Shown: positions 1 through 51,504 of the stretch, piece by piece
How the letters are laid out: every line of letters begins with the position of its first letter
Numbering within the stretch: the stretch's first letter is position 1
Assembly (NCBI GenBank): GCA_964402035.1
Contig: CAYOAM010000001.1
Location: 24,261 to 88,260, forward strand
Direction of reading: 5' to 3'
DNA: 64,000 bases
Source: an uncultured Candidatus Saccharibacteria bacterium
Lineage (GTDB): Bacteria > Patescibacteriota > Minisyncoccia > Phycocordibacterales > UBA918
Notes under the pieces: model-generated
Database searches by the model: none
What the model was told of the DNA's origin: nothing
The model's input: only the letters and a program-made list of their open reading frames with translations
Made by a program: the position numbers and the translations under genes

Positions 1-336
1 TTCTATATCAGATTGTGTGATTTCTGAATCGGCTCGTGACGTGATCACTTCGCCGTGTGAGTGAATCTCATCAAGACCAATACCACCGATCGAAAGAAAG
101 GCTCGATGGATGGGTGCGCCAGCGGCTTTTTCAGCCTGTGATACTGCCGATCGTATACTCTTGATGACATCGGTTTCGTTGATGATGTAGCCATGACGAA
201 GACCGCGGGATTCGGCAAAACCGGTACCCACGATCTGGGGGAGCATCTTTGCTTCATTTCGTTTTGGTACACGAACGACCACTACTTTTACTTGGTAGGT
301 ACCAACGTCAATACCTGTGATGAGTCGCTCAGTCAT
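1..336 (-). CDS. ftsA: cell division protein FtsA, N-terminal part (gene runs off the window start)
   Basis: My own reverse-strand translation from the ATG at 336 gives MTERLITGIDVGTYQVKVVVVRVPKRNEAKMLPQIVGTGFAESRGLRHGYIINETDVIKSIRSAVSQAEKAAGAPIHRAFLSIGGIGLDE. This has the actin-like ATPase GIDVGT start and the FtsA-like layout. It is missing from the ORF track because there is no stop inside the window. Confidence 0.7.
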   Translation of the reverse strand, partial: MTERLITGIDVGTYQVKVVVVRVPKRNEAKMLPQIVGTGFAESRGLRHGYIINETDVIKSIRSAVSQAEKAAGAPIHRAFLSIGGIGLDEIHSHGEVITSRADSEITQSDIE

Positions 337-3679: not shown

Positions 3680-4096
3680 TCACGCTGCAGCTCCGTAGAT
3701 CGCGTCCTGGTAGATATTGCGGAGGGTCCGCAAAAGCGTGCAGGCAACATCATATGGGGTCACCTCATGATTTCTAATGATCAAGATGATGCCACGCCAG
3801 TTTGGGTATCTACGCCTGTGATCTTCTGCTCCTTTCCATGACGATTTGACCTGGATTCTAATGTCTCCGCGGTCCGTATGTGCCCAACCGTCGGTACCTC
3901 GTCTGTCCTCTGAATGGTTCGATACGGCCAAAGCGTGGAGCCAGAATGGCCGGTTTTGATAACTGTTCAAGAGAAGCGCTGCATCTTGAAACAGTGCTTC
4001 GGAATACCTCCCACGTGCATCTCGCACCTCTCGTTCACGGAGGTACGCAGTAACCTCCGCAAACTTTTTGCTGGGCTGCTTCAATTTTCGTCGCAT
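3680..4096 (-). CDS. hypothetical protein (138 aa)
   Basis: ORF between pth and rpsA with good coding density. It has a possible D...D-I-R-I-Q-V-K (PD-(D/E)xK-like) stretch. No family was recognised with confidence. Confidence 0.35.
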   Translation of the reverse strand: MRRKLKQPSKKFAEVTAYLREREVRDARGRYSEALFQDAALLLNSYQNRPFWLHALAVSNHSEDRRGTDGWAHTDRGDIRIQVKSSWKGAEDHRRRYPNWRGIILIIRNHEVTPYDVACTLLRTLRNIYQDAIYGAAA

Positions 4097-6757: not shown

Positions 6758-9241
6758 ATGGCAAAAAAGGATAAAAACTTTGAAGATAAGGGTGTGCCAG
6801 CTGCTTTTGTGGAAACAAAAATGGTGGCACAAAATATTACCGACGAAATGCGTACGTCGTACCTTGACTACGCGATGTCGGTTATTACCCAGCGTGCGCT
6901 TCCTGATGTGCGTGATGGCTTAAAGCCGGTGCATCGTCGCATTCTCTATTCTATGCGCCTCAATGGCCTCACCGCCACTGCACGTTTTAAAAAGTCTGCA
7001 ACGGTTGTTGGAGATGTGCTCGGTAGCTTTCACCCACATGGTGACGTTGCCGTGTATGATGCAATGGTCAAACTTGCGCAAGATTTTACGACGCGCTACC
7101 CACTCATTTTAGGACAAGGAAACTTTGGATCAATCGATGGAGACTCGCCTGCTGCGTACCGCTATACGGAAGCAAAAATGTCACGACTTGCCGAAGAACT
7201 GCTTCGTGATCTTGAAAAAGAGACGGTCAACTGGCGCCCAAACTTTGACGGTACGAAGCGCGAGCCAGAAGTATTGCCCGCTGGTATTCCAAACCTGCTC
7301 CTTACGGGAACGTTGGGTATTGCGGTGGGTATGGCGACCAATATTCCGCCACACAACTTACGCGAGGTGGCGGATGCTACTGCACATCTTATTGATAATC
7401 CAAAAGCAACGACTGAAGATTTGTTGCAATTTGTGAAAGGTCCCGACTTTCCGATGGGAGGTATTGCTTTCAATCAAAAAGATATTGCACATGCGTACGC
7501 AAACGGTCGTGGGGGAGTTGTCGTGCGCGGTGAAGCGGAGATTGTGGAGGATAAAAAGGGAGCGTTTTCGATCATCATCACCTCGATTCCGTATCGTGTG
7601 AACAAGGCCGATATGCTTATGAAGATTGCAGACCTCGTGCGTGAAAAACGTATTGAGGGTATTCGAGATCTGCGTGATGAATCCACACGTGACATACGTG
7701 TGGTTGTTGAACTCAAAAATGGAGCGCAACCGCAGACAGTGCTAAATAAGCTCTATAAACACACGCAGCTCGAAGAAGCCTTTCATTACAACATGGTGGC
7801 ACTTGTCGACGGTATTCCTCAGACATTGTCTCTCAAGTCAATTTTGCAGTGCTACATTGCGCACCGTCAGGAAGTCATCCGTCGTCGCACCGAATTTGAT
7901 CTTCGGAAAGCAAAAGAGCGTGAGCATATTTTGCTCGGGCTCAAAAAAGCCCTCGATCATATCGATGAGATCATCAAGCTTATCCGTGCAGCAAAAGACG
8001 TACCGGCGGCACACGCAGCATTGATGCAGCGCTTCAAGTTTTCTGAACTTCAAGCGACCGCTATTCTTGATATGCGTTTGCAGAAGCTTGCCGGTCTTGA
8101 GCGCAAGAAGATTGAGGAAGAACTCAAAGAAGTGCAGGCACTGATCGAAGAGTTGCTTTCTATATTGAAAAGTGAAAAAAAGATGCTCACTATTATCAAA
8201 AAAGACCTGCTCGATATCGCCGAAAAATTTGGCGATGATCGCCGCACCAAGATTGTGAAAGGTGGGGTAAAAATGCTTAATCCTGAGGATTTGGTACCCG
8301 ACGAAGAGAGCGTGTTGGTGCTCACACAGGGCGGGTATGTAAAGCGCACCAATCCGTCTGAGTATCGTGCACAGCGTCGCGGTGGCGTGGGGGTTGTTGA
8401 TCTCAACACCAAGGAAGAGGATTTTGTCACCATGCTCCTCACGACTTCAACGCACAGTAATCTCCTGTTCTTTACGAATCGTGGAAAAGTATTTCAGACG
8501 AAGATGTACGAAATCCCTGAAGCAAAGCGTGCGACAAAAGGGAAGTCGATTATGAATTTCCTCTCGCTGACCGAAGCGGATCAAGTGACTTCGGTGAAGG
8601 CGGTACCAAAAGCACAAAATCATGCTGGACTCTCACTCATGATGGTCACGAGACAAGGTATTGCAAAAAAAGTTGCCGCGGAAAGTTTTAAAGATGTGCG
8701 CCAGAGTGGTCTTATTGCCATCTCACTACATGCCGACGATGCACTTATTGCGACACAGTTTGTAGAAAAGGGTGATGAGATGATGCTTGTGACATCGGGA
8801 GGACAGTCTATTCGTTTTAAAGAATCTGATATTCGTGAAATGGGCCGCGGCGCTGCGGGTGTTCGTGCGGTAAAGCTTGGAAAAAATGACTATGTGGTGG
8901 AGGCGCATATTGTGAAGAAGGACGAGAAGGATGCCACGATGCTGGTCGTTTCAGAAAATGGATACGGCAAGCGAACGCCACTCAAGGAATACAAAGTGCA
9001 AAAGCGCAGTGGTTCTGGTATCAAGACTGCAAAAGTGACGTCAAAGACGGGCAAGATTGTGGGGGGTCAGGTCTTGCATGCCGAAGATGTAGCGGAAGGG
9101 GAACTTGTGGTCATGAGCAAGAAAGGGCAGGTCATTCGACTTGCGCTCAAAGAAATCCCATCACTCGGCAGACAAACTCAGGGGGTACGGATTATGAAAT
9201 TGCGACCAGGGGACTCTATTGCTTCTGTGGTGTACTTCTAA
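6758..9241 (+). CDS. gyrA: DNA gyrase subunit A
   Basis: 827 aa. [30 protein letters not shown], and the active-site AAYRYTE tyrosine region. Confidence 0.95.
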
Positions 9242-18267: not shown

Positions 18268-19404
18268 GTCACAAGTTACTAACTATTTTGTTCCAAGTAT
18301 TCACAAAATACTAAGTACTTCTGACCACGACGCGATGTTTTTCTTTTAGAAAAACATCGTTGTGCCGCCCACAAAAGCATAGACCGAGAAAAGCAACCAT
18401 AAGTTGCTTTTCTCAAGGGCAGGTGTTTATTTCTGGTGGTCACGAATAAATTCACTAACGTGAATTTTTCGCTACCCGAGAAAAGCAACTCAATGTTGCT
18501 TTTCTCTGTGGTTTTAGCCTTGAGCAAAGCTCAAACAAAAAAATAGCTCTGCTTCCCACAAAAGAATGAACATCTGCCCCGGGGCAGGTGTTCATTAATT
18601 GTGGTCACTAGTCACTAACCAAATTACTTATTGCATAGTAATTTGCTAAGTGCTCTTGACCACGTCTCGCCCGTTGCCAAGGCAACATGGCTCCGACTCC
18701 CACAAAAGCATAAAACCTGCCGAAGGGCAGGTCTTTATGTCTTTTGTGGGCGAGAGAGGACTTGAACCTCCACGGGTTGCCCCACTTGGTCCTAAGCCAA
18801 GCGTGTATACCATTTCACCACTCGCCCAGAGTGTGCGCTACACTATAACGTATTTTTAATTTCTGTGCATTTTTGTCTTTCCTTTGAACATATGGCTGTG
18901 CGGTGGACTTGTCATCAAGAATTACTAAGTAGAATGCTACGCCTTCATACTAAGTATTCGCGATCCCGCCTCGCAGTATTTTTGCTCTTTGGCAAAAATA
19001 CATAGCTGCGGCTCGGACTCATAAGAAAAACACGGCGCAGGCAAAAACCATGTCATCACAAGTAAATTTACTGACGTAAATTTCTTGCGATCCCGGCTCG
19101 CTGTATTTTGCTTTAGGCAAAATACATAGCTCCGCCTCGGACACGTCATCACGAATAAATTCACGGACGTGAATTTTTCGCGATCCCGACTCAGCATCGC
19201 TTCGCGATATGCTTCCGTCGCGGACACGTTTACAAAAACAGCACGCAGGTGCTGTTTTTTCTGTCATCACAAATATTTTTCCTGACGGAAAAATTTCGCG
19301 ATCCCCGCTCGCGGTTTCTGCCTCTGCTTCGCAGAACAGAAACATCGCTGCGCGTCGGACAAATGCACAAAATCTCCCGCAGGGGAGATTTTGTGCATTT
19401 GTCC
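18268..19404. repeat. array of modular hairpin repeats: at least 7 copies of the family-A nested palindrome, 'ttttgc...gcaaaa' small hairpins, 'cacaaaag...cttttgtg' long hairpins, and 4 direct ~100-130 bp units sharing CATAGCTCCGCCTCGGACACGTCATCAC and TTTCGCGATCCCGNCTCGC
   Basis: Read from the sequence. The variable palindromic cores aaatttac-tgac-gtaaattt (19064-19083), aaattcac-ggac-gtgaattt (19157-19176), tttttcc-tgac-ggaaaaa (19274-19293) and aaattcac-taac-gtgaattt (18448-18467) differ by compensatory changes. Confidence 0.8.
18747..18827 (-). tRNA. tRNA-Leu (anticodon UAG)
   Basis: Manual cloverleaf. Acceptor GGGCGAG/CTCGCCC, anticodon stem CTTGG/CCAAG with loop CTTAGGA, long variable arm, T-loop TTCAAGT, discriminator A. 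Confidence 0.75.
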
Positions 19405-20258: not shown

Positions 20259-20342
20259 GCCGGGGTGGTGAAATTGGTAGACACGCGACACTTAAAATGT
20301 CGTGAGCGCAAGCTCATATGGGTTCGATTCCCATCCCTGGCA
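20259..20342 (+). tRNA. tRNA-Leu (anticodon UAA)
   Basis: Manual cloverleaf. Acceptor GCCGGGG/CCCTGGC, anticodon stem CGACA/TGTCG with loop CTTAAAA, long variable arm, T-arm ATGGGTTCGATTCCCAT. Confidence 0.75.
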
Positions 20343-20463
20343 CATGAATGAAGTGAATGGCGGGTAGTAGTGTGCAGGGCACACTACTACGGGAATCGAA
20401 GAGGTTGTTGACGATTTCGACCATCGGGAGAAATTGTCCTACAACCTGTACTGAACATGTAAT

Positions 20464-20486
20464 GTTCGATTCCTATCCCTGGCACA
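20464..20486 (+). repeat. 23-nt direct repeat of the tRNA-Leu(UAA) 3' end (22/23 identical), 121 bp downstream of the intact gene
   Basis: gttcgattcctatccctggcaca versus the tRNA's gttcgattcccatccctggcaca. An att-like duplication. Confidence 0.7.
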
Positions 20487-20581
20487 AAATAAGCGTAGTG
20501 TTTTTTGGAGAGATATACCGATATGTAGGTGCCACCATCTATGAGTGTTTGTCTATAGAAAGCCATGCTAGACTTTAGGAT

Positions 20582-21337: not shown

Positions 21338-21444
21338 TTCAGAGCTATACATATTTGAGGCCTGGGCGAGATCGTCCTGACGGATCACAATATTTTTGCT
21401 ATATTTCATACCAAAATACATAACGACCTCCTTTTGTTTTTAGA

Positions 21445-21586
21445 GTCACGAATCACTAAGCAAAATACTTTGTATTTATGCTAAGTGTTCTTGACCACGC
21501 CTCGTTTTTTGCTCCGCCTGAGAGCGAAGCAAAATGACTGCGGCCCCTCCGTGTATGAAAAAACAGCATGTAAATGCTGTTTTTTC
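21445..21586. repeat. tRNA-flank hairpin module: family-A element, then a ttttgc hairpin, then gaaaaaacagcat-gtaa-atgctgttttttc
   Basis: Same three-part architecture as 18601-18750 and 37801-37954, immediately downstream (minus strand) of tRNA-Cys. Confidence 0.7.
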
Positions 21587-21592
21587 TCACGG

Positions 21593-21664
21593 AGGCCTGG
21601 GCGAGAATCGAACTCGCGTGTATCGGTTTTGCAAACCGCTGTGTTACCACTTCACCACCAGGCC
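21593..21664 (-). tRNA. tRNA-Cys (anticodon GCA)
   Basis: Manual cloverleaf. Acceptor GGCCTGG/CCAGGCC, anticodon loop TTGCAAA, T-arm GCGAGTTCGATTCTCGC, discriminator U as expected for Cys. Confidence 0.7.
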
Positions 21665-37954: not shown

Positions 37955-37971
37955 TCTTTTGTGCGCCGGGT
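37952..37971 (-). repeat. displaced 20-nt copy of the tRNA-Tyr 3' end (putative att-site half)
   Basis: gcgccgggtaggatttgaa is identical to 43970-43989 (the 3' end of intact tRNA-Tyr), in direct orientation, 6.0 kb away. Confidence 0.75.
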
Positions 37972-38175
37972 AGGATTTGAAGTTTACTACTTCAGTACAC
38001 CTCTGAATAGCACCCCATGCTATTCAGCTACTTTTCTGCGCAAAGCTTGAAAAGGTAGCTCGCAAGGTTTTCAAATCCATGCTCCCAACACAAAAGACGT
38101 CCACAAGGGACGCCTTTTCTATTGGGTGCTCCGAACTGGAGGCGATTCGGATTCTATGCCTATAGTCTTCTAAAC

Positions 38176-46622: not shown

Positions 46623-46753
46623 AGCGAACGAAGTGAGCGAGGACGATGAGGGAATCGAACCGACAGTGCGGGGCACTGTCGTGCCGAGGGACGAGGTCGA
46701 TTCAAAAATATCATCACCCGTGTCAGGTGTCAGCATGTTAAAATGTATTCATT

Positions 46754-49001: not shown

Positions 49002-49745
49002 TCATCTACGAGATGCTGCGATGTCTCGTATCATCTCAAATCGCTCTGCAATTTCCTTTGGTTTTCCTGTTCTTGTGATAGGTCGACCAACGATGAGTAC
49101 GTCAGCACCAGCGTCGCATGCCTCTTTCGGTGTTGCTCTATTCACTTGGTTATCTGTTGGGTCATCGGGCATACGAATTCCTGGGACAAAAAACTGGGGA
49201 CGGCAGAGCTTTCCGACTGTACGGGAAATGATTCTGATGTCCCGTGCGCCACACACGAACTGAGTGATACCGTGTTCTGCGGCGTGCAAAGAGAGCTCCC
49301 GAAGGGCCTCCTCTCTCGAGCGATTAAAAATACGCCGTACGTCTTCGTCCGTAAACCATGTTGGTACGGTCACTGCTATTACTCGATCGATGAGCTTGGC
49401 TTTTTGTAGACTTACGAACATCGATGAGCTACTCATAGCATGTATTGTCACAAGATGTGCGCCTTGCCAGAGGTCATTGGTGACTGCTCCGACAACCGTG
49501 GGACCAGTATCGCCCCATTTGTTGTCTAGAAGGACTCGCGACCGCAATCCTGGTAGTACAGAGTGACGTGCGCGATTCAAGGTCGCCTTCAAATCGAGTC
49601 CCACCCCACTCGCGGGGAGATGTACTTTGTAGTCGGTACATCCTTTTTCTTTCAGCGCATACATGATGTCGCTGAAGTTTCGCATGAAGGAGATGTGTTC
49701 TTGCTCAGTATCTGGCGGATCGAGTGCGGCCATAACGTCAGCCAT
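49002..49745 (-). CDS. orotidine-5'-phosphate decarboxylase family (ribulose-phosphate-binding barrel) protein
   Basis: LLDNKWGDTGPT (D-x-K-x-x-D...T as in the PyrF DxKxxDIxxT motif) and the C-terminal VLIVGRPI. PyrF versus a related family member cannot be settled by eye. Confidence 0.5.
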   Translation of the reverse strand: MADVMAALDPPDTEQEHISFMRNFSDIMYALKEKGCTDYKVHLPASGVGLDLKATLNRARHSVLPGLRSRVLLDNKWGDTGPTVVGAVTNDLWQGAHLVTIHAMSSSSMFVSLQKAKLIDRVIAVTVPTWFTDEDVRRIFNRSREEALRELSLHAAEHGITQFVCGARDIRIISRTVGKLCRPQFFVPGIRMPDDPTDNQVNRATPKEACDAGADVLIVGRPITRTGKPKEIAERFEMIRDIAASRR

Positions 49746-49881
49746 TGCGTTTCTCCCTGTCGAGGATCAAAATCCTTTCGAGTTATATAGGAAAAGAGGA
49801 CTTTGGGCAAACTTCTGTGATGGAGTGGCGGGGTCACAAAAGCAATAGTCATTGTTGCTACGCAACATCTCCTTTGTTTTG

Positions 49882-49962
49882 TGCTGGAGATGGGACTTGA
49901 ACCCATAAGCCTTGCGGCATGCGATTTTGAGTCGCACGTGTATACCATTCCACCACTCCAGC
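49882..49962 (-). tRNA. tRNA-Leu (anticodon CAA)
   Basis: Manual cloverleaf. Acceptor GCTGGAG/CTCCAGC, anticodon stem TGCGA/TCGCA with loop CTCAAAA, variable arm hairpin GCC-GCAA-GGC, T-arm ATGGGTTCAAGTCCCAT. Confidence 0.75.
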
Positions 49963-49976
49963 AATATATTCGATTT

Positions 49977-50017
49977 TACCACCTGCCTGCCGGCAGGCAG
50001 GTTCCACCACTCCAGCA
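49977..50017. repeat. 22-bp perfect palindrome acctgcctgccggcaggcaggt joined to a copy of the tRNA-Leu(CAA) 5' end (ttccaccactccagca); copy 1
   Basis: Read from the sequence. The second copy is at 50280-50320. Confidence 0.8.
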
Positions 50018-50021
50018 ATAT

Positions 50022-50261
50022 TTATTTTCCAATACTTTTCAAGAATTCTCTACCTGCACCTGACTTGAGATATTTTTCTCTTGTCCGAGCAGCTGTCCTC
50101 GTATCATATACTTCGCTGTAAATCAGAGCAACAGGCAGGTACCGCTTTGTGGTTTTACTGTATCCACTCGTATGCTCGTACAGTCTTCGCGACAAATCAC
50201 TGGTCATTCCGGTATAGTGGAATTTTTTCAGTTTATTTTCTAGAACATAGACCGTGTACAT
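50022..50261 (-). CDS. GIY-YIG nuclease family protein (79 aa from the internal Met)
   Basis: YTVYVLENKLKKFHYTGMTSDLSRRLYEHTSG matches the GIY-YIG core (Y-x-Y ... Y-x-G ... R-x-x-x-H). The ORF-track N-terminus (MLEWWNLPAGRQVV) is encoded by the flanking palindrome repeat and is rejected. Confidence 0.7.
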   Translation of the reverse strand: MYTVYVLENKLKKFHYTGMTSDLSRRLYEHTSGYSKTTKRYLPVALIYSEVYDTRTAARTREKYLKSGAGREFLKSIGK

Positions 50262-50279
50262 AGGTGCACATGTGTATAC

Positions 50280-50320
50280 CACCTGCCTGCCGGCAGGCAG
50301 GTTCCACCACTCCAGCATTT
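50280..50320. repeat. second copy of the 22-bp palindrome plus tRNA-Leu(CAA) 5' fragment (preceded by gtgtatacca, which also matches the tRNA D-region)
   Basis: ataccacctgcctgccggcaggcaggttccaccactccagca. A direct repeat of 49977-50017 flanking the GIY-YIG gene. Confidence 0.8.
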
Positions 50321-50469
50321 AATATTTTCTTCAATCAAATTTGCTCCAACTATCAGCGTTGTAGATGGTAAACCTACAATTGACTTATTTCAGCACAAAA
50401 GCTCTGTCCGTAGAGTGTATCAACAATTCACTCTATTCTCAATATTCTCTGTGATACAATGACCCCGAT

Positions 50470-51504
50470 ATGTCATTTCAAAACGACGCAATTTTCTGGG
50501 TAGAGGTTCATAAAATACAGCCAAATCCGTATCAACCACGACGTGAATTTGACGAATCAAAACTCAAAGAGCTTGCAGAATCTATACGTCAGTACGGCGT
50601 TTTGCAACCACTCGTAGTAACGCGAAAAGAAGTGCCAAAAGACGACGGCGGCATTTCGGTAGAGTATGAGTTGATTGCAGGAGAGCGACGTCTGCGCGCG
50701 TCGCGCCTAGCTGGCATAGGGCAGGTACCAGTCATTATCCGCGATGGAGCGGAAAGTGATCACATGAAGCTCGAGCTTGCGATCATTGAAAATTTGCAAC
50801 GCGAGGACCTCAATGCGGTTGATCGCGCACGCGCCTTTAAACAACTTGCAGATGAGTTTAGTCTTTCACATACACAGGTAGCACAGAAAGTTGGCCGTAG
50901 TCGTGAGTATGTTTCAAATACTATCCGATTGCTCTTGCTCCCTGATGATATTTTGACAGCACTTGGGCAGGGACATATCGCCGAGGGTCATGCGCGCACG
51001 ATTTTGATGCTCAATGACCGGCCACAAGAACAAAACGTCATATTTAAAGAAATTTTGCTCAAGAAACTTTCGGTGCGTGAAGTAGAACGGATCACACGAA
51101 AGCTGGCGACTGATAAGGTGAGAAAAAAAAGTTGGGGCGGTATTGATCTTGAAATTATTGAGATGGAAAAGCAATTGACAGAGGCACTCGGCACACGTGT
51201 ACAAATTGCAAAGACGGACTTCGGCGGCAAAGTAGTGATCGATTATTTTTCCCCTGATGATTTGCAAAAACTACTCCACATGATGGTGGAAGCAGATCTC
51301 AAGGTATCGCAGGTGCCCGTTCCTGAGATGGAAAAGTCTGCACCCTTAAGTGTTGCTGCGGCTATTGAAGAAGTATTGGCACCTACTGAAGTCTCCGCAA
51401 CTATCGAGGAAGTGGCTACTCCTCCTGTCGATGACCGTCCTCTTGAGGAACAAAAGCAAGAGGACGACACCGACCTATACGCCATTAAGAATTTTTCGCT
51501 TTGA
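50470..51504 (+). CDS. parB: ParB/Spo0J-family partition protein
   Basis: GVLQPLVV, YELIAGERRLRASRLAG (the ParB box) and an HTH region, with an acidic C-terminal tail. No adjacent parA. Confidence 0.75.
   Translation: MSFQNDAIFWVEVHKIQPNPYQPRREFDESKLKELAESIRQYGVLQPLVVTRKEVPKDDGGISVEYELIAGERRLRASRLAGIGQVPVIIRDGAESDHMKLELAIIENLQREDLNAVDRARAFKQLADEFSLSHTQVAQKVGRSREYVSNTIRLLLLPDDILTALGQGHIAEGHARTILMLNDRPQEQNVIFKEILLKKLSVREVERITRKLATDKVRKKSWGGIDLEIIEMEKQLTEALGTRVQIAKTDFGGKVVIDYFSPDDLQKLLHMMVEADLKVSQVPVPEMEKSAPLSVAAAIEEVLAPTEVSATIEEVATPPVDDRPLEEQKQEDDTDLYAIKNFSL

Follow-up and report, generated by a model that had tools for sequence, protein, structure and literature searches.

A recurring bacterial cassette of a minimal GIY-YIG nuclease gene, a short palindrome and a tRNA fragment, with homing-like features

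Mobile nucleases and dispersed palindromes described so far

Among the closest described systems is SegB, a free-standing GIY-YIG endonuclease of T-even phages that cuts tRNA-containing DNA, spreads by break repair and is amplified in tandem when the tRNA 5' region recombines with the 3' end of the SegB gene itself (PMC13096335). The cassette described here, which combines a GIY-YIG nuclease gene, a short palindrome (hereafter P) and copied tRNA segments in the 64-kb stretch of DNA that was analysed (the window), resembles SegB in that the GIY-YIG gene sits beside tRNA genes without an intron, and in that tandem and partial units occur in cassettes too. By contrast, SegB is phage-borne, larger and of the homing/UvrC-type lineage, whereas the cassette gene is cellular and encodes a bare 79-aa domain of the Slx1/UPF0213 type. 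The cassette also differs in its accompanying truncated tRNA copy, which a conserved palindrome or GC hairpin usually splits.

The mobile endonuclease ORF of Allomyces atp6 reportedly brings a replacement gene end with it, the displaced end persisting as a pseudo-fragment. Small GC-rich hairpins (GC clusters or double-hairpin elements) lie at or near such junctions in fungal mitochondria and also disperse alone. These fungal ORFs differ from the cassette in residing in organelles, in targeting protein-coding genes and in having other hairpin sequences, whereas the cassette occupies bacterial chromosomes, targets stable-RNA genes and carries one 20-nt sequence common to several phyla.

Dispersed palindromes with a partner enzyme are represented by the REP/REPIN-RAYT systems, in which RAYT is an HUH Y1 transposase and the REPs are species-specific and high-copy. 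There too a short palindrome is both dispersed and found on either side of the gene for its presumed mobilising nuclease, but the cassette enzyme is a GIY-YIG protein, and P is low-copy per genome and identical across phyla. A REP-RAYT assignment is ruled out by the GIY-YIG protein, by the presence of two P copies in 64 kb and by the occurrence of the same P in many phyla. The small dispersed repeats (SDRs) of heterocystous cyanobacteria are said to be 21-27 nt hairpin elements that insert precisely, nest and land in RNA genes; to our knowledge, they occur in this one cyanobacterial group only, and we know of no enzyme that moves them. P, in contrast, spans many phyla and has a candidate partner gene.

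As for the protein, UPF0213 and prokaryotic Slx1-like proteins consist of a minimal GIY-YIG domain and nothing more, and have been viewed as repair proteins of unknown role that are inherited vertically (PMC1564403). UPF0213 proteins (PDB 1zg2 and 1ywl) are the nearest relatives of the cassette nuclease in both sequence and fold, but the cassette subfamily differs from them in showing the genomic behaviour of a selfish element. Within the literature open to searching, we found no description of the cassette design, no match for the P sequence, for GIY-YIG together with Patescibacteria or tRNA or for YhbQ together with GIY-YIG, and nothing pertinent on COG2827; the recurring nuclease-palindrome-tRNA design across many phyla appears to be undescribed so far.

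The tRNA-Leu(CAA) locus and its nuclease

At the 3' end of the cassette stands the 'restored' tRNA-Leu(CAA) gene, a complete copy, and upstream of it lies a truncated tRNA copy, which retains the ancestral promoter and whose D-loop is interrupted by P (Table 1). The core of P is 20 nt long (CCTGCCTGCCGGCAGGCAGG) and forms, with its A/T flanks, a 22-nt perfect palindrome, for which folding computed for single-stranded DNA gives a hairpin of -9.4 kcal/mol. Within the window P has two matches at up to 3 mismatches (0 in 100 shuffles), both at the cassette locus, although the window holds six other tRNAs. The reverse complement of tRNA nt 1-15, TTCCACCACTCCAGC, occurs three times, starting at 49948 (the tRNA itself), 50002 and 50302, and TGGTATACAC directly adjoins nt 1-15 in the intact tRNA, which places P exactly between nt 15 and nt 16 of the D-loop, without target duplication. 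A sequence-only reading of this DNA had reported two copies of a 22-nt perfect palindrome around a 79-aa GIY-YIG gene, each splitting a tRNA 5' fragment at a precise point, and both observations are borne out. The ATACCA that it placed beside each palindrome is exact in the distal copy, which retains 10-13 nt of tRNA beyond P, but the proximal copy keeps TGGTA only. Its suspicion that the N-terminus MLEWWNLPAGRQVV, shared by the ORF entries 49767-50018 and 50022-50318, is artificial was well founded, as this sequence is a read-through of the fragment and P.

Table 1. Features of the cassette locus in the window
Feature	Position	Strand	Evidence or remark
tRNA-Leu(CAA), intact, functional-looking	49881..49962	-	ARAGORN; Rfam tRNA 59.5 bits
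Extra 54-nt unit without ORF	49963..50016	-	tRNA nt 1-15 + P + TGGTA + 14-nt spacer
14-nt spacer within the 54-nt unit, aaatcgaatatatt	49963-49976	-	
TGGTA within the 54-nt unit	49977-49981	-	equals tRNA nt 16-20
Palindrome P, proximal copy	49982..50001	.	22 nt with flanking A/T at 49981-50002
tRNA nt 1-15 within the 54-nt unit	50002-50016	-	
GIY-YIG nuclease gene, 79 aa + stop	50022..50261	-	Pfam PF01541, E=5e-16
Leader of the nuclease gene	50262..50281	-	remnant of tRNA nt 16-28 + 7 nt ahead of the ATG
Remnant of tRNA nt 16-28, TGGTATACACaTG	50269-50281	-	12/13 identical to the tRNA
Palindrome P, distal copy	50282..50301	.	joins truncated tRNA copy to cassette
tRNA nt 1-15, truncated pseudo-copy	50302..50316	-	at ancestral position of the tRNA 5' end
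Promoter-like site TTGAGA-17-TACACT with TG	50414..50442	-	consensus scan match only
Whole extra block, 354 bp	49963..50316 (or 49948-50301, insertion at tRNA nt 15|16)	-	relative to the empty-site relatives L240-L243

The flanking of the gene by duplicated fragments, as that reading described it, does not hold as a general layout: the canonical unit has one interrupted fragment, on the side facing away from the intact tRNA, and the second P-containing fragment of the window is an extra unit without ORF, beyond that layout. Because of this unit, the gap between the nuclease stop codon and the tRNA is 59 nt in the window, against a median of ~3 nt in 43 other loci in which the tRNA directly follows the gene. 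The length of tRNA left after the distal hairpin (13 nt) equals the family median. The same arrangement is found, identical, in two independent assemblies (L001 and L002) and is therefore no assembly accident. The candidate promoter lies within a block of sequence conserved also in relatives without the cassette and, as far as the consensus match indicates, probably drives the fragment, the nuclease gene and the tRNA as one transcript. A group I intron or giant tRNA intron was rejected, as an E-value scan of 49400-50600 with Rfam finds tRNA only, and the downstream tRNA is uninterrupted.

Occupied and empty versions of this site can be compared directly. The extra block has ParB and PyrF as neighbours, and relatives located by a ParB search (L240-L243; ParB 74-77% identical) carry the same tRNA-Leu(CAA) without fragment, P or GIY-YIG gene; a PyrF search at E<=1e-30 found no closer relatives. 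Homology between the flank upstream of the cassette and that of the uninterrupted tRNA in these relatives extends to nt 15, after which P begins (alignment A2), and the 5' half of the window tRNA is identical to that of the empty-site relatives L242 and L243. Relative to these closer relatives, the 354-bp block is an insertion at D-loop position 15|16. In a syntenic but more distant genome (L003; ParB 55% and PyrF 35% identical), nt 15|16 likewise holds a cassette, which includes a variant of P and a GIY-YIG gene 67.5% identical to that of the window. The site is thus occupied in the window, L001, L002 and L003 and empty in L240-L243, the occupied/empty pattern of a homing gene.

The nuclease (MYTVYVL..., 79 aa) is encoded by the sole GIY-YIG gene of the window, and its Pfam match covers profile positions 1-70 of 78. 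Residues Y16, R26, H30 and E62 show no variation, Y5 and G18 are conserved to 90% or more, and the AF2 model (pLDDT 87.5) has a beta-beta-alpha-beta-alpha-alpha topology; with its motifs, conserved Arg and Glu, and fold all present, the protein is a member of the GIY-YIG superfamily. Sequence searches of the PDB returned 1ywl and 1zg2 only, both weakly (E=5e-4 and 2.5e-3, respectively), while Foldseek ranked 1zg2 best, followed by Slx1 (TMq 0.62-0.70), with I-TevI weaker (0.56). The Slx1/UPF0213 branch is defined by a minimal domain, no auxiliary domain and no conserved C-terminal Asn (PMC1564403). The nuclease has no invariant Asn, and all 79 aa are catalytic domain, with no DNA-binding module for a long specific site of the kind found in I-TevI and the Seg proteins; it is thus a minimal Slx1/UPF0213-type domain of the structure-specific branch, not an I-TevI-type homing enzyme. 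Its true start is the ATG at 50259-50261 rather than the annotated 98-aa start, as homologues begin with MYTVY or MFYVY; the public record (P0001) carries the spurious 98-aa form. The family is large (7,348 clusters at 50% identity, E<=1e-10), but viral contigs contain next to none of it (3 loci, compared with more than 575 in metagenomes). For the nuclease, no family in PHROGs, PADLOC or NCBIfam scored above threshold, and a role as an anti-phage defence component was rejected in view of the missing PADLOC match.

Recurrence and proposed homing of the cassette

We surveyed 82 homologous GIY-YIG genes in 80 metagenome loci, distinguishing loci with an intact same-strand tRNA directly downstream of the gene (type A) from those with the tRNA directly upstream (type B). 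Such a tRNA adjoins 65 of the 82 genes (46 type A, 19 type B) and is tRNA-Leu in 45 of these 65, with Arg, Gly, Asn, Lys, Gln, Ser and Met species also present. The distance between the GIY-YIG stop codon and tRNA nt 1 in type A loci, with its median of ~3 nt, leaves the two genes nearly contiguous. Type B is a mirror form that duplicates the 3' end of the tRNA. When tRNAs were aligned to the flanks (trimmed profile, strict gaps), a 5' tRNA fragment was recovered in 41 of 43 type A loci, and a GC hairpin (14 nt or longer) splits 35 of these 41 fragments, the hairpin in the far-side truncated copy usually being P or a related GC hairpin. The hairpin may lie at nt 9, 15, 22, 31 or 49, and is followed by a median of 13 nt of tRNA (range 8-31). 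P itself, allowing up to 3 mismatches, precedes the gene in 31 of the 46 type A loci and follows it in 7 of the 19 type B loci; it is almost never on the tRNA side alone, and is on both sides in only 4 of the 46 type A loci. Altogether, dozens of unrelated genomes share the trio of GIY-YIG gene, tRNA fragment and palindrome, which is associated with more than 10 tRNA species.

Several loci depart from the canonical layout. Tandem cassettes are present in L206, L186, L200 and L238, an ORF-deleted remnant that retains ATGTTCTATGTTTATATT in L122, and a fragment with P next to an intact tRNA, without a GIY-YIG gene, in L040, L043, L054 and L069. Compensated changes in the stem set the fragment apart from the resident tRNA in L004 and L230, and the two halves of the fragment around P match each other; these two loci are at odds with the simplest model, whose element consists of P, the gene and the replacement 5' segment only. 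Only two pairs of GIY-YIG genes are at least 80% identical, both in like contexts, and since there are no near-identical genes in differing contexts, recent movement is not directly seen. GIY-YIG sequences cluster weakly by target tRNA (56.7% versus 50.6%, a figure biased by the choice of the sample).

We put at roughly 60% the probability that the window locus is one copy of a widespread selfish, homing-like cassette inside tRNA transcription units, whose mechanism, with cleavage, target and homing by the nuclease, we infer from the arrangement of genes and junctions. The best reading is that the cassette replaces the tRNA end that it disrupts, with P as a junction marker or a handle for the nuclease. 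Under this scenario, for which phage SegB offers a precedent, the nuclease would break an unoccupied tRNA gene at a loop position and may read DNA structure (stem-loops or cruciforms of the tRNA arms or of P) rather than a long sequence. The break would then be repaired from an occupied allele, with tRNA segments as homology arms, and repair would copy in P, the nuclease gene and the replacement tRNA 5' segment, so that the essential tRNA would remain intact, co-transcribed and processed out. At the junction, P would interrupt the target as well as the direct repeat that the pseudo-copy represents, reducing re-cutting and deletion, and it may also be a hairpin bound by the nuclease. Should the intact copy be re-cut, misaligned repair could yield tandem or ORF-less units, such as the second fragment and P of the window.

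The small mobile, tRNA-directed unit proposed by the sequence-only reading therefore stands as the best interpretation, the insertion being absent from closer relatives and the trio recurring across genomes. Its description as homing-endonuclease-like survives as the best reading of the unit but not of the enzyme, which, unlike classical homing enzymes, belongs to a minimal branch without a DNA-binding domain. This bare catalytic domain, which has nothing obvious with which to read a long target, counts against the proposed homing. Homing as proposed also provides for no immunity of the intact tRNA copy, which should stay a target.

The palindrome at large, alternatives and consequences

Exact P was found in more than 120 genome stretches, each listed from a different assembly, and in 35 viral-contig stretches, in CPR, Bacteroidota, Omnitrophota, Planctomycetota, Proteobacteria and others. 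Its presence in cultured isolates of different laboratories, its compensated variants and its conserved positions relative to genes rule out a sequencing-adapter palindrome, and the absence of matches in shuffles, the two assemblies and the more than 100 genomes rule out chance or an assembly artefact. Isolates that bear P include members of Winogradskyella, Flagellimonas, Longitalea and Flavivirga. Diverged variants of P are compensated (for example, CCTGCCTACCGGTAGGCAGG); the internal CCTG repeat of P gives register-shifted self-matches in covariation analysis, and individual compensated variants alone are reported here. Comparison of filled and empty paralogous sites indicates precise insertion, and target duplication of the IS/MITE type is seen neither in these pairs nor at tRNA sites; 7-bp direct repeats flank P at 20 of 165 sites (2.7 expected), mostly inside heptamer arrays. 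Flanking stems of 7 bp or more enclose P at 14 of 160 sites, compared with 2.7 expected, and P is nested inside another P in L057 and L081. By these site comparisons, P is shown to be a precisely inserting element that favours hairpin loops.

The sequence-only reading had asked whether P always sits in tRNA-like sequence, and P proves to be confined neither to such sequence nor to GIY-YIG genes: among the 125 exact P genome sites listed, only 16 have a tRNA and only 6 a family GIY-YIG gene within 600 bp. That reading named a common stand-alone repeat unlinked to GIY-YIG genes or tRNA fragments as the observation that would speak against it, and P is indeed common as a stand-alone repeat, but from the side of the gene the association is overwhelming (31 of 46 type A genes, as above). 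All-against-all clustering of the ORFs within 2 kb of P recovered the GIY-YIG family, at 7 loci, and a weak group of four-helix bundles, at 5 loci and for the most part over 1 kb from P, and no other recurrent protein or recombinase family. A bolder extension of the cassette, possible in our view but doubtful, is that P and its relatives are pan-bacterial hairpin elements of ~20 bp moved in trans by minimal, structure-recognising Slx1-like GIY-YIG nucleases, whose genes lodge with a replacement end in stable-RNA genes (tRNA genes and the neighbourhoods of 5S, 23S and RNase P RNA).

With the family gene missing within 600 bp of 95% of the exact P genome sites listed, P may be moved by something else. 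Two independent phenomena would then coincide, the cassette making dead tRNA fragments and P being a separate miniature element, moved by another enzyme, that strikes hairpin loops at large and survives only where it is harmless, that is, in a dead fragment and not in a live tRNA; the association would reflect survivorship rather than mechanism. We judge this unlikely. The position of most listed exact sites away from GIY-YIG genes and tRNAs favours it, as do the occurrence of P in terminator-like hairpins, in other P copies, in a copy of the 5S rRNA end and inside heptamer repeats, the want of any other protein family recurrent within 2 kb, and the tolerance of P in the variable loop of an otherwise complete tRNA (L029). 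Independent hits should scatter, however, whereas the position of the hairpin is coupled to the end of the duplicated segment in whichever loop it lies (the median of 13 nt noted above), and most type A fragments carry a hairpin (35 of 41) though exact P is low-copy. The polarity of P, almost never on the tRNA side of the gene alone, also speaks against this alternative.

A domesticated host function is, to our minds, improbable. The nuclease would then be a cellular enzyme for repair, or for maintaining tRNA genes or stable RNA, that is purposely co-transcribed with tRNAs, and the fragment and hairpin would serve as a leader adjusting the level of its expression. In the comparison of the window with L003, the gene is more conserved than the housekeeping genes next to it (67.5% against 35-55%); it is co-oriented and nearly contiguous with the tRNA, and prokaryotic Slx1-like proteins, one of them recorded as a fusion to the tRNA D-loop methylase TrmH, were earlier seen as vertically inherited repair factors (PMC1564403). 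A leader, however, need not copy the downstream tRNA; the gene is missing at the same locus in the closest relatives, the partner tRNA and the side of insertion vary, and a selfish insert is betrayed by tandem arrays, by remnants that have lost the ORF and by pseudo-fragments. Very improbable is site-specific integration by a recombinase encoded elsewhere, in the manner of tRNA-targeting integrative elements or integron cassettes, with the GIY-YIG gene as cargo and P as the recombination site: such integrative elements typically carry a replacement tRNA end, the palindrome at the junction is reminiscent of a core or attC-like site and its two copies bracket the gene in the window, but there is no integrase or other recombinase in or near the 354-bp insert (its neighbours being ParB and PyrF), no recombinase family recurs near P, the junction ranges from tRNA nt 9 to nt 63 rather than marking one core, and the only constant gene is the nuclease itself.

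If the selfish, homing-like cassette is real, thousands of genes annotated as 'GIY-YIG nuclease family protein' in Patescibacteria, Bacteroidota, Omnitrophota, Planctomycetota and others would be parasites of tRNA genes rather than repair factors, and the tRNA genes of reduced genomes would be hotspots of 'replace what you break' insertions that keep essential genes intact. A bare catalytic domain of the structure-specific Slx1 branch would then behave selfishly, contradicting the idea that the UvrC-like branch alone has given rise to selfish GIY-YIG enzymes (PMC1564403). The nuclease also provides a candidate enzyme for a 20-bp mobile palindrome unchanged across phyla, and so opens to direct testing the old question of how very small repeats are mobilised. 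Mobilisation of P in trans, if true, would amount to a new transposition or homing system; it would give the Slx1 branch its first selfish lineage, and no smaller mobile DNA with an enzyme of its own would be known. Existing annotations are affected in a further way, as gene callers read through the fragment and P and thereby create false N-termini: LPAGRQ, PACRQA or CLPAGR appears in 16 of the 150 top family representatives, the database entry of the window among them.

The cassette at tRNA-Leu(CAA)

The sequence-only reading had described a GIY-YIG nuclease gene bracketed by two tRNA-Leu(CAA) 5' fragments, each split by a palindrome (P, 20 nt and GC-rich), and this arrangement is confirmed by the coordinates in the window, by shuffling and by two independent assemblies, in which the locus is identical. 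Besides its two copies here, P has no match in the 64 kb with up to three mismatches allowed, nor any in 100 shuffles. Nucleotides 15 and 16 are adjacent in the intact tRNA, and P is therefore a clean D-loop insertion lacking target duplication. One detail needs correcting: in the proximal copy only 5 nt of tRNA lie beyond P. The gene matches Pfam GIY-YIG (E=5e-16) and is the sole such gene within the window. Its stop lies 59 nt from the tRNA, an outlying distance accounted for exactly by an extra 54-nt unit without an ORF. The N-terminus MLEWWNLPAGRQVV common to two ORFs, rightly called artificial, is a read-through artefact, and one public protein record (P0001, 98 aa) uses it. In a model transcript of the locus the two P copies are predicted to pair with each other.

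Features of the tRNA-Leu(CAA) locus (window positions)
Feature	Position	Strand	Remarks
Promoter-like site	50442..50414	minus	
tRNA-Leu(CAA) nt 1-15, distal fragment	50316-50302	minus	
P, distal copy (CCTGCCTGCCGGCAGGCAGG)	50301-50282	read on minus	
tRNA nt 16-28 remnant	50281-50269	minus	12/13 identical
GIY-YIG gene, 79 codons	50261-50022	minus	preceded by 7 nt
tRNA nt 1-15, second copy	50016-50002	minus	5 nt after GIY-YIG gene
P, proximal copy	50001-49982	read on minus	
TGGTA (tRNA nt 16-20)	49981-49977	minus	followed by 14-nt spacer
Complete tRNA-Leu(CAA)	49962-49881	minus	

The cassette is an insertion. Four relatives (L240-L243; ParB 74-77% identical) have the same order of ParB, tRNA-Leu(CAA) and downstream genes, the tRNA 5' half of L242 and L243 being identical to that of the window, and in all four the 5' fragment, P and the GIY gene are absent at this tRNA. 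Homology runs from the ParB side through tRNA nt 15, followed by P in the window versus nt 16 in the relatives, and this break means that the window holds 354 extra bp. A syntenic, much more distant locus (L003; 55% identity for ParB, 52% for RelA and 35% for PyrF) carries the cassette at the same position between nt 15 and 16, with the P variant CCCGCCTGCCGGCGGGCAGG, a second hairpin between nt 7 and 8, and a GIY gene 67.5% identical to that of the window. In both the window and L003 the fragment agrees with the tRNA resident there in the bases specific to that lineage, which means either independent insertion or ongoing gene conversion. The four relatives also have, 3' of tRNA-Leu(CAA) (~2300-2820 in each), one or two additional 3' ends of that tRNA, and before each stands a 100-150-nt insert of one family (atgaacgtagtgaatgg..., ...gtgacc + T-arm) for which no Rfam model was found; window 49790-49880 may hold a decayed remnant of it (gtgaccccgccactccatcac).

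Recurrence of the cassette and its nuclease

Some database homologues bear false N-terminal extensions containing LPAGRQ, which is P translated. A profile scan of metagenome contigs gave more than 575 relatives, of which the best 80 loci (82 genes) were analysed. Among these, an intact same-strand tRNA lies directly downstream of 46/82 genes (type A, the form seen in the window) and directly upstream of 19/82 (type B); 13 have no adjacent tRNA despite complete flanks, and four have flanks too short to judge. These counts come from a later, relaxed re-classification; of the loci scored as tRNA-less by an earlier, stricter one, at least ten have a tRNA, detected with Rfam, that overlaps the end of the ORF. 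The partner is tRNA-Leu in 45 of 65 cases (CAA 23, GAG 11, CAG 8, TAA 3), the others being Arg, Gly, Asn, Lys, Gln, Ser and Met.

The architecture is recurrent and polar. Type A reads promoter, tRNA[1..N], hairpin, tRNA[N+1..N+~13], GIY gene, intact tRNA; type B is its mirror, with intact tRNA, GIY gene, tRNA[M..N], hairpin, tRNA[N+1..3' end] and terminator. Among the fetched loci, the fragment is found in 41/43 type A genes, and a GC hairpin of at least 14 nt interrupts 35 of these 41; for type B the figures are 14/17 and 9/14. With up to three mismatches, P lies upstream in 31/46 type A and downstream in 7/19 type B genes; hardly ever does it occur solely on the side of the tRNA. Hairpins sit at loop borders (nt 8-11, 14-15, 18-24, 28-31, 39, 49 and 57-63), and their position is coupled to the boundary of the duplication: a median of 13 nt of tRNA (range 8-31) follows before the cassette proper, wherever the hairpin lies. 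The GIY stop precedes tRNA nt 1 by a median of ~3 nt and falls inside the tRNA in nine cases. Derivatives occur as tandem cassettes (L206, L186, L200, L238), an ORF-deleted remnant retaining the first codons (L122) and gene-less fragments with P adjoining an intact tRNA (L040, L043, L054, L069). At L004 and L230 the fragment is a coherent piece of a foreign tRNA, with compensated stem differences and halves that match across P, so that at least sometimes the fragment itself moves along with the gene.

Other settings suggest that targets may be wider than tRNA genes: a GIY gene next to an RNase P RNA gene (L172, 108-386 and 580-1051), one just upstream of a group I intron (L181, 1429-1740 and 1811-2084), and P at 3861 followed by GIY within a long ORF resembling a type I restriction specificity/methylase gene (L099). 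In L132 (900-1120 and 4640-5200), a GIY-YIG ORF lies in an intervening sequence with inverted ends, ~740-1030 nt into a 23S rRNA gene and in the same orientation, distant from a P-split 5S copy.

The family profile collects 7,348 50%-identity clusters at E<=1e-10; only three family loci come from viral contigs. Of the top 150 representatives, 97 have at least 95 aa and 16 contain a P-encoded peptide, which indicates that gene callers often read through the fragment. False N-termini (MLEWWNLPAGRQ..., MAELADLPAGRQA..., MVELADLPAGRQA...) and, in type B, false C-termini result; P0001, P0004, P0006, P0035 and P0062 are records with such ends. No NCBIfam model passes its own cut-off for the nuclease, and PHROG and PADLOC give no match. 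Sequence matches in the PDB are weak and confined to the UPF0213 proteins 1ywl and 1zg2. For the AlphaFold model (pLDDT 87.5) the best structural match is 1zg2, followed by the nuclease domain of the structure-specific nuclease Slx1 (TMq 0.62-0.70, 22-29% identity), with the I-TevI catalytic domain a weaker match (0.56, 14%). Dunin-Horkawicz et al. (PMC1564403) described the prokaryotic Slx1-like proteins as minimal, with vertical inheritance and a probable role in repair, and traced selfish GIY-YIG enzymes to the other, UvrC-like lineage; the tRNA-adjoining subfamily is at odds with this picture.

P as a stand-alone repeat

The sequence-only reading had named two things that together would speak against it, a palindrome that is a common stand-alone repeat and one unlinked to GIY-YIG genes or tRNA fragments; the first is what we find. 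Exact copies of the 20-mer turn up in 35 IMG/VR contig stretches and in at least 120 genome stretches, each of those listed coming from a different assembly, in taxa that include Patescibacteria, Bacteroidota (including cultured isolates), Omnitrophota, Planctomycetota, Gamma- and Deltaproteobacteria, Bdellovibrionales, Thermodesulfovibrionales and Chloroflexi. Among the matches listed, a family GIY gene lies within 600 bp at 6/125 genome sites and a tRNA at 16/125. Besides GIY, no protein family recurs near the listed P sites except four-helix-bundle ORFs (L089 3400-3800; also L009/L031, L141 and L147), which by eye resemble the '23S rRNA intervening sequence protein'; L089 is the sole case in which such an ORF begins directly after P.

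P behaves as an insertion element, precise and favouring hairpins. It is nested in the centre of another P in L057 and L081 (similarly in L060 and L067), and among the matches listed complementary arms of at least 7 bp flank it at 14/160 sites versus 2.7 expected. An uninterrupted copy of the joined flanks lies within 2.5 kb of 19/162 listed sites, from which it follows that insertion is precise and without duplication. Among these filled and empty pairs are hairpin repeats (L058, L123) and the doubled 5S rRNA end of L132, where the 5S gene is followed by a terminator and then a copy of its 3' end split by P. Direct 7-bp repeats on both sides of P (20/165 listed sites versus 2.7 expected) usually lie within arrays of short tandem 7-8-nt units; they could reflect a preferred target or the trace that repeated insertion leaves. 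P often stands inside such arrays, with the unit on both sides, for example at L140 1815, L121 346, L013 8396, L084 773 and L089 3400.

Some variants of P have symmetric double changes by which the palindrome is preserved (CCTGCCTACCGGTAGGCAGG); another is a register-shifted form (CCTGCCTGTCGGCAGACAGG) whose 6-bp stem is kept, which argues that the stem is the selected feature. In some cassettes other GC hairpins take its place (CCCGCC..GGCGGG, TCCGCC..GGCGGA). As single-stranded DNA the 22-mer (P with its flanking A/T) is predicted to fold at -9.4 kcal/mol. One viral contig ends in a 21-nt unit repeated ten times head to tail, with the variant CATGCCTACCGGCAGGCAGG in each (L038 3916-4125); the array may be genuine or a product of assembly. 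Two tRNA-Met(CAT) genes have P in the variable loop (L029 2239-2330, L006 ~8570-8650), that of L029 still being called by ARAGORN as a 92-nt tRNA; this could be a tolerated solo insertion mimicking a long variable arm.

The many orphan sites fit an independent, loop-seeking P that merely survives in dead fragments. Against this speak the 13-nt coupling, the occupancy of 85% of fragments by an element of low copy number, and the strict polarity.

Proposed movement of the cassette, and other tRNA-end duplications

We favour a selfish cassette, at a probability of roughly 60%. A domesticated host enzyme with a tRNA-derived leader would fit the high conservation, but not the absence from the closest relatives, the varying partners, the tandem arrays or the remnants. 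Against the GIY gene as cargo of a recombinase encoded elsewhere, no recombinase was found in or near the insert or recurring near P, and the junctions vary; an artefact is excluded.

For the selfish cassette we propose, with less assurance than the reading itself, the following route. The nuclease would break a tRNA gene that is still empty, cutting at a loop position and perhaps recognizing stem-loop or cruciform DNA. The break would be repaired from an occupied allele with the tRNA pieces as homology arms, and hairpin, gene and a substitute for the tRNA end would be copied in. Since the genomes have only tRNA sequence in common, the element would be bounded at tRNA nt 1, which is where the boundary is seen. 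Upstream of the fragment lies a conserved block resembling a promoter, which suggests that nuclease gene and tRNA are co-transcribed; RNase P would then cut the tRNA out of the joint transcript. At the junction P splits an otherwise contiguous 25-45-nt target copy and direct repeat, and should thereby lower re-cutting and gene loss; it may double as the nuclease's handle. Re-cutting of the intact copy with misaligned repair could give tandem or ORF-less units, such as the window's second fragment, and early re-annealing on the ~13-nt tail could leave a tRNA that is complete but for a solo P, the state seen in L029. GIY-YIG cleavage in tRNA DNA, and tandem amplification through recombination between tRNA and gene end, both have an experimental precedent in phage SegB (PMC13096335). 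The weak points of this route are a protein without a DNA-binding module, an intact tRNA that should remain cleavable, the majority of P sites without a GIY gene, and the foreign fragments of L004 and L230.

The element is real and of a general type, filed here under a known kind, the free-standing nuclease cassettes of homing type that replace the end of a gene; no description of the element itself was found in the searchable literature. Its unusual features are the minimal Slx1-branch enzyme, the habitat in stable-RNA genes and a 20-bp palindrome unchanged across phyla.

The window holds further tRNA-end duplications. The 3' end of tRNA-Leu(TAA) (20259-20343; TTCGATTCCcATCCCTGGCAC) is repeated ~130 nt on (20344-20495, plus strand), after a non-coding insert with atgaatgaagtgaatgg at its start, gtactgaacatgtaatg at its end and an inverted T-arm (gggaatcgaa) inside; it represents a second kind of insert that duplicates a tRNA end, one lacking an ORF. 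The 3' end of tRNA-Cys (21591-21664; CTCGCCCAGGCCTC) recurs ~220 nt on (21357-21590, minus strand), with an insert motif ggtcaagaacacttagca...ttagtgattcgtgac also present after tRNA-Leu(TAG) (18560-18745). At 37961-37981 (minus strand), 6 kb away from tRNA-Tyr, the last 21 nt of this tRNA recur with gtactgaagtagtaaac in front of them, and at 46623-46700 (plus strand) agcgaacgaagtgagcg comes after tRNA-Trp, together with the T-arm and acceptor end of that tRNA in inverted orientation.
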